In this document: one piece after another, positions 10,382 to 15,374 of the stretch
How the letters are laid out: each line of letters opens with the position of its first letter
Position numbering within the stretch: the first letter of the stretch is position 1
Virus genome (UHGV): UHGV-1576676
Direction: 5' to 3' (one strand)
Length of the DNA: 21,723 nucleotides
DNA from: a virus
The notes under the pieces: model-generated
Databases searched by the model: none
Told to the model about the DNA's origin: nothing
Seen by the model: only the letters and a program-made list of their open reading frames with translations
Made by a program: the position numbers and the translations under genes

Positions 10382-10410
10382 ATTTTATTGAAAGTCACTT
10401 GTTGACTTTC
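10382..10410 (-). promoter_or_regulatory. Candidate late promoter for the head/tail operon: perfect 8-bp inverted repeat followed by a TAAAAT -10-like hexamer
   Basis: Minus strand reads GAAAGTCA-acaag-TGACTTTC aa TAAAAT; P1 late promoters are recalled as a -10 plus an upstream inverted repeat near -22. Confidence 0.35.
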
Positions 10411-14029: not shown

Positions 14030-14310
14030 TTTTTCCGAATTGTGTGGATAGTTTTTATAAGTGGTGATAACTACCCAGGCTTTCCCGTCAGCACACATCC
14101 TATATCCCGCCAGCACACATTAGCAACCCGTCAGCACACATTTTTATCCCTCCAGCACACATCGTTTTCCCTCCAGCACACATCGCGATACACTTCTAAG
14201 CCAGACGTGGCGCGGCCTGCAACGATCAGGGATCTATATGGATCTAATTGGGATCTGTATGGACCTGATTATTGGATCTATCCAGTGGATAATGTGGATA
14301 AGTGAAAAAC
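14030..14310 (-). other. oriR: oriR plasmid replication origin: DnaA box, incC iterons, GATC-rich heptamer repeats, tandem DnaA boxes
   Basis: tgtggatag (14043-14051); five iterons at 14081-14184; five GATC sites in gatctat-type heptamers at 14224-14278; DnaA boxes agtggataa / tgtggataa at 14285-14302. Confidence 0.85.
14081..14184. repeat. incC: incC: five direct 19-bp iterons containing the repA promoter
   Basis: Five cagcacacat(c/t) iterons spaced ~21-23 bp apart, immediately upstream of repA. Confidence 0.85.
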
Positions 14311-14342
14311 CGGCCAACGTAGCCGGTTGGAAGGGAGTCGTA

Positions 14343-14735
14343 TTATTCTACGCTTTCGATGAGAAGACCATGTTCATAGCATTTAAGCTCATCGCCCTCG
14401 TACAGGAATTGGTATCCAATACCACCATATTCAGGCACATTAGGGAATAACTCATCACTTACCGAAGAACAAATCACACCAATGCAGCGATCAACGCCTT
14501 CTCGTTCTTCAGTGCTGAAAAAATCCTCTTCGGTAAGAACATGAGTACATTGCTCATCAGCATAGGTCGGAAATACATGCTCAATGCAATCCGGGTGTTT
14601 TAAACCAAGCTGATCGGCAAGCTCGAAAGCACGACGGTATTGTTCAGATCCTGGCTTGCCAACAGTGATTTGCTCAATTTTGTAGATTGAAGTCGCTTTG
14701 TTGATAGTTTGCTTTACTGTTACTTTATCAGACAT
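14343..14735 (-). CDS. Hypothetical protein (P1 upfA-like position)
   Basis: 130-aa ORF just beyond oriR on the repA strand; Cys/His-rich; assignment by synteny only. Confidence 0.55.
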   Translation of the reverse strand: MSDKVTVKQTINKATSIYKIEQITVGKPGSEQYRRAFELADQLGLKHPDCIEHVFPTYADEQCTHVLTEEDFFSTEEREGVDRCIGVICSSVSDELFPNVPEYGGIGYQFLYEGDELKCYEHGLLIESVE

Positions 14736-14746
14736 AAAAATCCCTT

Positions 14747-15079
14747 TTAGTTACCGCTAATAGCTCGGTTGTAATCATTAACGTTGCGATTCTTCCTGTT
14801 AATCCCCATCAGCATCGTTTCTGTATCGAGGATATACGCTGGCAGATCATCAAAATATTCACTGCTAAACTCTGGCATCCTGCACATAAATGCACTTTTG
14901 GGGGCAGGGTGGTTAACCTTTGTCGGCGTCGGCGTTAAATTCGCTGATCGACTCCCGGAGCAACCGCTGAGTGTCAGCAGGAATACGCTGGCGAACATTA
15001 CCCGCCGCAACCAGGTGTTTCTGAACTTCAGCTTTTCGTTCCATTTGCCTGTCAGCATACTTGGCTTGTTCTGATTCAT
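14747..15079 (-). CDS. mlp: Small lipoprotein precursor (P1 mlp-like); candidate outer-membrane spanin subunit
   Basis: AGGAAG 6 nt upstream of the ATG; basic N-region, hydrophobic VMFASVFLLTL, lipobox LSGC; overlaps the 3' end of the ppfA-like gene by 167 nt in another frame. Confidence 0.6.
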   Translation of the reverse strand: MNQNKPSMLTGKWNEKLKFRNTWLRRVMFASVFLLTLSGCSGSRSANLTPTPTKVNHPAPKSAFMCRMPEFSSEYFDDLPAYILDTETMLMGINRKNRNVNDYNRAISGN

Positions 15080-15335
15080 TTTTCACTTCCTGGCTGTGAA
15101 AATGTTGCTCTGCTTTGTTCATCGTCTCAATGGTCTGGTTAAGATCCATTATTGACTTATCACGCTCCTTAACAGCCTGATCAAGACTGCCAATTTTCTC
15201 TATGGCTTGCTTTAGCTGATGACGTTCCCATGCAAACCCAGCACCAACAAGTGCGCAAATCAGAACAAGAACACCAGTAGCAGCAAGTTTCTCCTTCAAA
15301 GACAAAGCTGTTTTTAACGTAGAAAAGAATGACAT
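14913..15335 (-). CDS. Membrane-anchored coiled-coil protein (P1 ppfA-like); candidate inner-membrane spanin subunit
   Basis: AGGAGG 5 nt upstream of ATG (MSFFSTL...); one N-terminal transmembrane helix (LAATGVLVLICALVGAGFAW) then a charged segment with coiled-coil-like periodicity. Confidence 0.6.
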   Translation of the reverse strand: MSFFSTLKTALSLKEKLAATGVLVLICALVGAGFAWERHQLKQAIEKIGSLDQAVKERDKSIMDLNQTIETMNKAEQHFHSQEVKNESEQAKYADRQMERKAEVQKHLVAAGNVRQRIPADTQRLLRESISEFNADADKG

Positions 15336-15374
15336 GTCTTCCTCCTGAAGAAAAATTATCAATGAAGTCCTTTG

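Follow-up and report, generated by a model that had tools for sequence, protein, structure and literature searches.

Overlapping ppfA and mlp genes of phage P1: a probable two-component spanin of the overlapped class, distantly related to LysB/LysC of phage P2

Introduction

In phage lambda, Rz is a type II inner-membrane protein of helix-linker-helix design and its partner Rz1, read in the +1 frame, is a small proline-containing outer-membrane lipoprotein, a design that the ppfA/mlp pair of phage P1 shares. Lambda Rz has two periplasmic cysteines, which form intermolecular disulfides. In phage P2, lysC starts within lysB and runs past its end, as mlp does with ppfA, and the two P2 genes, which overlap by 146 nt, form part of a canonical cassette, immediately after the genes for holin and endolysin, whereas more than 30 kb separate the P1 pair from lyz and lydAB. 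Spanin genes usually sit in a lysis cassette but need not do so, since those of phage T4 (PseT.3/PseT.2), like the P1 pair, lie apart from the genes for holin and endolysin (Kongari 2018, PMC6139136).

The P1 pair has been noticed before. In Table S1 of Kongari et al. 2018 (PMC6139136), the P1 genome (NC_005856.1) is entered as "ovl", with gp064 as the i-spanin (140 aa, 104 of them periplasmic, no periplasmic Cys) and gp063 as the o-spanin (110 aa, 71 in the mature form, one periplasmic Cys), and each protein is assigned to a family called P1. In Bednarek et al. 2022 (PMC9025707), ppfA and mlp appear as "the spanin genes of P1", their identification is credited to Summer et al. 2007, and experimental verification is said to be missing; our literature search retrieved no experimental test of the spanin function of either gene. 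The latter paper swaps the i- and o-spanin labels; we take mlp to be the o-spanin gene, because Mlp is the lipoprotein of the two to judge from its sequence. In the P1 reference record, mlp is P1_gp063 ("Rz-like spanin") and ppfA is P1_gp064 ("possible periplasmic function"), and Rz/Rz1 names are already in use in RefSeq and in a number of GenBank records of P1-like elements. The spanin identity of the pair is thus already known in the literature and databases, and the preliminary description of this DNA, which implied that the pair had gone unrecognized, was mistaken on this point in view of Kongari 2018 (PMC6139136), Bednarek 2022 (PMC9025707), and RefSeq. Its remark that the P1 genes carry only placeholder names holds for the GenBank P1 records, which keep PpfA and Mlp, but not for RefSeq, where mlp (and only mlp) has been renamed "Rz-like spanin". 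The independent tests reported here confirm the existing assignment and add little that is new.

Results

Position and layout of the ppfA/mlp locus

The analyzed DNA was a viral genome sequence of 21,723 nucleotides (UHGV-1576676; the window). Its bases 14300-15800 are 99.8% identical to bases 62907-64407 of Escherichia phage P1 (NC_005856), and 95-98.5% identical to the genomes of P7, RCS47, SJ46, and other punaviruses. The putative i-spanin gene, ppfA, occupies positions 14913-15335 on the minus strand (ATG at 15335, stop at 14913) and encodes 140 aa, as indicated by the open reading frame and its translation, a match to phrog_89, and Table S1 of Kongari 2018. The putative o-spanin gene, mlp, lies at 14747-15079 on the same strand (ATG at 15079, stop at 14747) and encodes a precursor of 110 aa with a mature part of 71 aa, based on the open reading frame, PHROG matches, a BLASTP match to P2 LysC, and the same Table S1. 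The two genes share positions 14913-15079 (minus strand), in which mlp is read in the +1 frame relative to ppfA. Within these 167 nt fall the stop and the final 55 codons of ppfA as well as codons 1-55 of mlp, which specify the signal peptide, the lipobox, and the beginning of the mature part. The coordinates agree with the preliminary description, in which mlp started inside the 3' end of ppfA in another frame with an overlap of 167 nt. As mlp starts within ppfA in a different frame and continues past the ppfA stop, the layout is that of the overlapped class in the sense of Summer 2007 and Kongari 2018. The window differs from the P1 reference at base 15015, where a single change alters both proteins (Q107H in PpfA and N22T in Mlp).

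Each gene is preceded by a Shine-Dalgarno sequence on the minus strand. That of ppfA, AGGAGG at 15341-15346, ends 5 nt before the ATG and is also marked in Kongari 2018 Table S1 (PMC6139136), and that of mlp, AGGAAG at 15086-15091, ends 6 nt before the ATG and falls within the ppfA codons for Q-E-V-K. In two diverged relatives (L007 and L011) the mlp sequence reads AGGAGG.

The pair belongs to a putative transcription unit, upfC, upfB, ppfA, mlp, and upfA (14308-16456, minus strand), which we propose from the NC_005856 annotation, the conserved gene order, and common RNA-seq kinetics. In this unit upfC, encoding a PAAR protein, lies at 16172-16456, upfB at 15375-16220, and upfA at 14343-14735, all on the minus strand, and a terminator-like hairpin 3' of upfA (14308-14328, minus strand) closes it. 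The immediate neighbors of the pair are thus upfB and upfA, and the pair adjoins oriR and repA. In P1 coordinates, ppfA/mlp lie at 63.4-63.9 kb, lyz at 20.3 kb, and lydAB at 30.4-31.2 kb, so that the pair is indeed far from lyz, lydA, and lydB, as had been stated at the outset.

PpfA has the features of an i-spanin

The only hydrophobic segment of PpfA comprises residues 17-35 (LAATGVLVLICALVGAGFA; codons at 15231-15287, minus strand), with a Kyte-Doolittle mean of 2.35 over 19 residues. The flank on its N-terminal side contains K8, K14, E15, and K16 (net charge of +2), and the remaining 104 aa are 36% charged (19 D+E and 18 K+R) and contain no cysteine. These features fit a type II inner-membrane protein with the N terminus in and the C terminus out, the orientation following from the positive-inside rule.

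In an AlphaFold2 model, based on an alignment of 11 sequences and having a moderate mean pLDDT of 68, PpfA forms a helix from residue 13 to 110, which includes the transmembrane segment, a break at residues 111-119 (GNVRQRIPA), and a second helix at residues 120-137. The periplasmic domain is accordingly predicted to be of the helix-linker-helix pattern described for i-spanins. Hydrophobic residues at heptad positions a and d were enriched to 0.775, compared with 0.50 +/- 0.10 in shuffled sequences, of which 1.6% reached this value; a test as simple as this one is only indicative. Taken together, hydropathy, charge, and the model reproduce the 140-aa protein with one N-terminal transmembrane helix and a long charged helical domain that had been described initially. 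A single N-terminal transmembrane domain followed by a predicted periplasmic remainder that is largely alpha-helical is what defines an i-spanin, and PpfA displays both, its orientation being the one deduced above.

Mlp has the features of an o-spanin

Pattern matching located a lipobox, L-S-G-C, at Mlp residues 37-40 (14960-14971, minus strand), in which the serine occupies position +2 relative to the cleavage site (LSG|C). Cys40 would carry the lipid and begin the mature protein, and a serine at +2 is consistent with outer-membrane sorting. The mature part of 71 aa contains six prolines and one further cysteine, Cys66, in good agreement with the small lipoprotein with an LSGC lipobox and several prolines that had been recognized from the DNA. 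A lipobox ending in Cys and no Asp at +2 are the marks of an o-spanin, and both were found in Mlp. The match of Mlp to the Pfam lipoprotein family LPAM_1 was weak (E 0.12), and in Kongari 2018 Table S1 (PMC6139136) LipoP places the cleavage at position 39, Prosite gives no match, and the protein is flagged "Too long signal sequence". The signal sequence is indeed atypically long, with 39 residues.

Cys66 (codon at 14882-14884, minus strand) is the sole periplasmic cysteine of the pair. It lies within an FMCRMPE motif, does not vary among the five diverged Mlp sequences, and aligns with a cysteine of P2 LysC. Following the rule of Kongari 2018 (PMC6139136) that a spanin needs a minimum of one intermolecular disulfide of the homotypic kind, we regard Cys66 as the candidate residue for such a bond, through which the pair would possess the one periplasmic cysteine that the rule calls for.

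A conserved basic extension of about 25 residues precedes the signal peptide of Mlp. A second possible start is found at codon 24, 16 codons before the lipobox Cys, and is a TTG in P1 and an ATG in three of the four diverged relatives. Initiation at this TTG would give a canonical signal peptide of 16 residues aligned with residue 1 of LysC. We did not adopt it as the true start, because each of the four diverged relatives keeps the upstream ATG and its Shine-Dalgarno sequence, while Cronobacter phage JK004 lacks the internal start; this comparison of starts is confounded by the overlap with ppfA.

Both genes are conserved in diverged P1-like elements

For an evolutionary comparison we used four diverged P1-like elements, namely Cronobacter phage JK004 and three contigs of 59-91 kb, whose PpfA proteins are about 58-63% identical to that of P1. 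The order PAAR gene, upfB, ppfA, mlp, then repA and parA is kept in all four, with upfA between mlp and repA in all but two of them (L009 and L010), for which this gene was not called. The overlapped mlp frame, an ATG 38 codons before the Cys, and a lipobox (LSAC, LNGC, or LNAC) are likewise retained in each of the four. When the part of mlp outside the overlap was compared between P1 and these elements, pS was 0.70-0.87, which is near saturation, and pN was 0.10-0.14; for ppfA codons 1-85, dN/dS was about 0.2. The Mlp relatives show no variation at the lipobox Cys, at Cys66, or in the motif FMCRMPE..SEYFDDLPAY. Since pN is far below pS in mlp, dN/dS is low in ppfA, and lipobox and overlap are kept in the relatives, both are genuine genes under purifying selection. 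As a side observation, gene callers often miss or truncate mlp in P1-like plasmid prophages.

The pair is distantly related to LysB/LysC of phage P2

To calibrate PHROG assignments, we used the spanins of P2, lambda, and T7 from their reference genomes. PpfA matched phrog_89 ("Rz-like spanin") with an E-value of 8.7e-25 over profile positions 3-137 of 143, and P2 LysB fell into the same PHROG (E 5.8e-61). Mlp matched phrog_30284, its own family (E 4e-78), and phrog_456 (E 2.4e-5), both named "Rz-like spanin"; phrog_456 is the best PHROG of P2 LysC, which also matches phrog_30284. Lambda Rz and Rz1 were assigned to phrog_13 and phrog_3198, and T7 18.5 and 18.7 also to PHROGs other than those of the P1 pair. 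In a direct BLASTP comparison, Mlp and P2 LysC were 37% identical over 68 aa (E 1e-7), in an alignment that spans the signal peptide, the proline-rich stretch, and the Cys-x-M-P motif.

No BLASTP signal was obtained between PpfA and P2 LysB (E 61), and hhalign of the 11-sequence PpfA alignment with LysB gave a probability of 1.4%, the alignment being too shallow (Neff 1.5) for this value to count against homology. Because neither method detects the relationship between PpfA and LysB, PpfA is tied to the i-spanins through the PHROG profile, and P1-like sequences may be among those from which this profile was built. The best NCBIfam matches stayed below the cut-offs (PpfA to LysB TIGR03495, 20.2 bits with a cut-off of 92.75; Mlp to LysC NF038368, 14.7 bits with a cut-off of 27), and we conclude that the P1 proteins are distant relatives of P2 LysB and LysC and not members of these equivalog families. 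The profile comparison with the Rz and Rz1 families, which the preliminary description had put forward as a check, gave no match to Pfam Rz (Phage_lysis) or Rz1 at E-values up to 1, nor any significant family for PpfA or Mlp.

Relatives were few. A tblastn search of 50,697 phage records with both proteins returned P1-like phages only, and a word-indexed search of 5.8 billion proteins P1-like elements only. An exhaustive HMM search of 1.84 billion cluster representatives gave 33 matches, among them only three full-length distant relatives, which have a transmembrane-helix design like that of PpfA and match several spanin PHROGs weakly; this search revealed no PpfA homologue in a canonical lysis cassette. 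Since the proteins fall outside the Pfam Rz and Rz1 families, score below the NCBIfam cut-offs for LysB and LysC, and have few relatives in the databases, the pair is a small, narrow family of its own, with a distant relationship to LysB/LysC.

The pair shows late kinetics in published RNA-seq data

In published RNA-seq data for P1vir (PMC8201110, Table S1), the log fold change of ppfA rose from 5.6 at 10 min to 11.2 at 30 min and that of mlp from 4.1 to 10.5, and the five genes upfC, upfB, ppfA, mlp, and upfA together range from 4.1 to 5.6 at 10 min and from 10.5 to 11.2 at 30 min. The corresponding values in the same data set (PMC8201110) are 5.2 and 11.8 for lydA, 3.4 and 11.0 for lydB, 6.1 and 11.3 for lyz, and 5.4 and 12.1 for gene 23, whereas parA, hrdC, and dmt, which are early genes, have reached 8.8-9.5 by 10 min. 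The genes from upfC to upfA hence fall into the late kinetic class, like lyz, lydA, and lydB.

A search with the Lpa late-promoter motif, modeled on the annotated LP23 (AAGTGACTT-N4-TAAAAT, window positions 10382-10400), found no match upstream of upfC, upfB, or ppfA. A generic sigma-70 scan of the minus strand upstream of ppfA gave nothing convincing, and in the P1 record the only sigma-70 promoters annotated in this region are two predicted ones, both inside upfB. The late timing of ppfA and mlp occurs without a recognizable Lpa box. With respect to late expression alongside the other lysis genes, which is expected of a spanin in the sense of Summer 2007 and Kongari 2018, the picture is thus mixed, as the kinetics match those of lyz, lydA, and lydB but the pair lies more than 30 kb away from these genes and has no Lpa motif upstream.

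Discussion

The reading of ppfA and mlp as an i-spanin/o-spanin couple, which the preliminary description had proposed, is supported by the overlap, the PHROG matches, the BLASTP alignment of Mlp with LysC, the AlphaFold2 model, and the late RNA-seq kinetics, to which the topology signals of both proteins can be added. Based on these lines of evidence, we consider it very probable that ppfA and mlp form a functional two-component spanin in phage P1 that belongs to the overlapped gene class.

By analogy with the lambda paradigm as summarized in PMC6139136 and PMC9025707, the following course of events may be envisaged. The two genes are transcribed late, alongside the PAAR tail-tip gene rather than within the lysis operons. 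As known from lambda Rz/Rz1 biology, PpfA would be held in the inner membrane and extend its helical domain into the periplasm, and Mlp, once lipidated and cut by signal peptidase II, would travel via the Lol system to the outer membrane and lodge in its inner leaflet, probably as a covalent homodimer joined through Cys66. The periplasmic domains of both proteins would bind each other, probably via their C-terminal parts, and thereby form a bridge that passes through the peptidoglycan mesh and is caged by it. Once LydA, the holin, fires and Lyz, the SAR endolysin, breaks down the peptidoglycan, nothing would keep the complexes from clustering and changing shape, and they would then fuse the inner and outer membranes, removing the last barrier to virion release.

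Evidence against the assignment comes from a CRISPRi screen (PMC10695390) performed on plates with 5 mM Ca2+ and 5 mM Mg2+. In this screen, knock-down of ppfA gave efficiencies of plating (EOP) of 1.3 and 1.2 and that of mlp gave 0.24 and 0.19, and both genes were scored as non-essential; in the same study (PMC10695390), lambda Rz was scored as essential and lambda R, the endolysin gene, was only partly defective. These data weaken the spanin assignment, and the pair may be auxiliary or redundant in P1. They do not refute the assignment, because the knock-down is partial and spanins are dispensable in many laboratory conditions (PMC9025707). Further points that tell against a spanin are the missing match to the Pfam Rz and Rz1 families, the NCBIfam scores far below the LysB and LysC cut-offs, the lack of a direct signal between PpfA and LysB, the long signal sequence of Mlp, the missing Lpa motif, and the distance from the other lysis genes, although the T4 spanin genes are unlinked as well.

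The screen is also an argument for regarding ppfA/mlp as a pair derived from spanins that is by now redundant or auxiliary, the outer membrane being broken mainly in another way and the pair being needed only in certain hosts or conditions, as has been argued for the multiple holins of P1. In favor of such a state of affairs, both P1 genes proved non-essential in the presence of divalent cations where lambda Rz was essential, the lysis set of P1 (lydA, lydB, lydC, lydD, lydE, and lyz) is complex and partly redundant (PMC9025707), and lysis in shaken laboratory cultures does not require spanins (Bednarek 2022, PMC9025707). However, the strong purifying selection and the conservation across diverged elements argue for a maintained function, the partial nature of CRISPRi is illustrated by lambda R, itself only partly defective, and knock-down of mlp did lower the EOP about four- to five-fold; we hold redundancy to be unlikely. 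Similarly improbable, in our opinion, is that the basic extension of Mlp is a regulatory device instead of an artefact of annotation, dual starts yielding precursors that are exported slowly or fast and so time the build-up of the o-spanin, or that the pair has a role beyond lysis. The latter was considered because the genes are unlinked from the lysis genes beside the replicon and are non-essential for plaques by CRISPRi.

There is a further explanation, to which we give very little credence, namely that Mlp is an envelope lipoprotein expressed by the prophage and engaged in superinfection exclusion or host conversion (cf. lambda Bor, T5 Llp, and phi80 Cor), PpfA being unrelated or accessory, and that the location beside oriR, repA, and par reflects a function in the lysogenic state. 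The separation from all other lysis genes, the two predicted sigma-70 promoters inside upfB, the missing match to an Lpa motif upstream, and the unimpaired plaque formation upon knock-down would all suit such a protein. Yet the transcripts of the pair are late, neither early nor constitutive, as parA, parB, and repA next to it are high at 10 min and ppfA and mlp are not; moreover, Mlp is related to the o-spanin LysC of P2, the conserved +1 overlap of its gene with that of a type II membrane protein is the hallmark of spanins, and the co-transcribed PAAR tail-tip gene serves a late virion function. Least credible of all is that only ppfA is functional and that the mlp frame is a by-product of its sequence or an over-annotated reading frame. 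It is true that gene callers often overlook or shorten mlp in related contigs and that the first half of mlp lies within ppfA, where an open frame is by itself weak evidence. Nevertheless, the excess of pS over pN in the part of mlp beyond ppfA effectively refutes a chance open reading frame, and the invariance of both cysteines and of the FMCRMPE..SEYFDDLPAY motif, together with the BLASTP similarity to LysC, speaks against it as well. A functional spanin thus remains the reading that we prefer.

Transduction and phage engineering make wide use of phage P1, and ppfA and mlp are probably lysis genes of this phage that are dispensable for plating. The assignment is of practical value for annotation, given the placeholder names in GenBank P1 records and the missed or truncated mlp genes in P1-like plasmid prophages.

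The T4 genes PseT.3 and PseT.2 are separated, without the overlap seen in P1, and the PHROG search detected no sequence relationship between them and the P1 pair, though the o-spanin of T4 (Kongari 2018, PMC6139136), like Mlp, is larger than lambda Rz1. In lambda, Rz1 is fully embedded in Rz, whereas mlp only overlaps ppfA; the lambda proteins belong to different PHROGs, and the Pfam families named after them do not match the P1 pair. Unlike lambda Rz, PpfA has no periplasmic cysteine, so that in P1 only Cys66 of Mlp could play such a role. The P2 proteins are of similar size, with 141 and 96 aa compared with 140 and 110 aa in P1. The basic N-terminal extension of about 23 residues in Mlp is absent from LysC, residue 1 of which stands opposite residue 24 of Mlp, but both lipoproteins have a proline-rich stretch after the lipobox and a Cys-x-M-P motif in common.

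Assignment of the probable spanin genes and base differences from the P1 reference

Bednarek et al. 2022 (PMC9025707) gave ppfA the o-spanin label and called mlp the i-spanin. These labels are reversed by the sequence: since the lipobox lies in mlp (14747-15079, minus strand) and the transmembrane helix in ppfA (14913-15335, minus strand), mlp was assigned as the o-spanin gene and ppfA as the i-spanin gene.

Comparison of region 14300-15800 with the P1 reference revealed a difference at 15015, inside the ppfA/mlp overlap, where the window carries G (plus strand) versus T in the reference. This single base change alters two proteins together (PpfA Q107H and Mlp N22T), and it accounts for the only residue by which PpfA differs from the reference protein. 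The two further differences in this region, at 14882 and 15165, both fall on third codon positions, the former being silent in the Cys66 codon of Mlp.

Elsewhere in the window, a stretch of about 85 bp (20886-20970; P1 positions 69493-69577) was found to diverge strongly from the reference, with many substitutions and small indels. It overlaps tRNA-Thr and directly follows its end. Because of this divergence, the ORF of plp ('putative lipoprotein') encodes 81 amino acids in the window versus 125 in NC_005856. ARAGORN placed tRNA-Asn at 20741-20816 and tRNA-Thr at 20819-20894, and found no other tRNAs.

Genomic neighborhood and late expression

The ppfA/mlp pair is flanked by upfC (16172-16456, minus strand), which bears the RefSeq product name PAAR-motif protein and whose record notes similarity to phage T4 ORF 5.4, and by upfA (14343-14735, minus strand), the relatives of which are marked as members of the Pfam Gp49/gene 66 family (PF13876). 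The spanin genes thus seem to share a transcript with a gene for a likely virion component. upfA is not an obligatory partner of the pair, since in the Klebsiella aerogenes-type P1-like element (L009 and L010) it is not called between ppfA/mlp and repA, and the gap of about 555 nt downstream of ppfA contains mlp alone.

Published RNA-seq data indicate late kinetics for the upfC-upfB-ppfA-mlp-upfA operon. However, no Lpa late-promoter box of the LP23 type (10382-10400), in which AAGTNACTT is combined with a -10 element, is present upstream of this operon (16457-16620, minus strand). Apart from the divergent Pdmt promoter and the C1 operator of that promoter, this intergenic region has no annotated signals.

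Lipobox variants and the signal sequence of Mlp

In diverged homologs, the mlp frame carries the lipoboxes LNGC and LNAC (L008 and L009/L010). Asparagine at position -2 is outside the usual Prosite lipobox set, and o-spanins of this kind may escape automatic lipoprotein predictors and gene callers. In most related contigs, mlp is either uncalled or truncated.

The Mlp signal sequence (14963-15079, minus strand) was compared with those of four diverged P1-like elements (L007, L008, L009 and L011). It spans 39 residues, which is unusually long, and its hydrophobic core is preceded by a basic extension of about 25 residues. The relatives keep the length and charge of this extension, but not its sequence. 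Furthermore, a possible second start is located 16 codons upstream of the lipobox cysteine; it is TTG in P1 and ATG in three of the four relatives, while Cronobacter phage JK004 has none. The alignment of P2 LysC to Mlp begins exactly at the position of this possible internal start.
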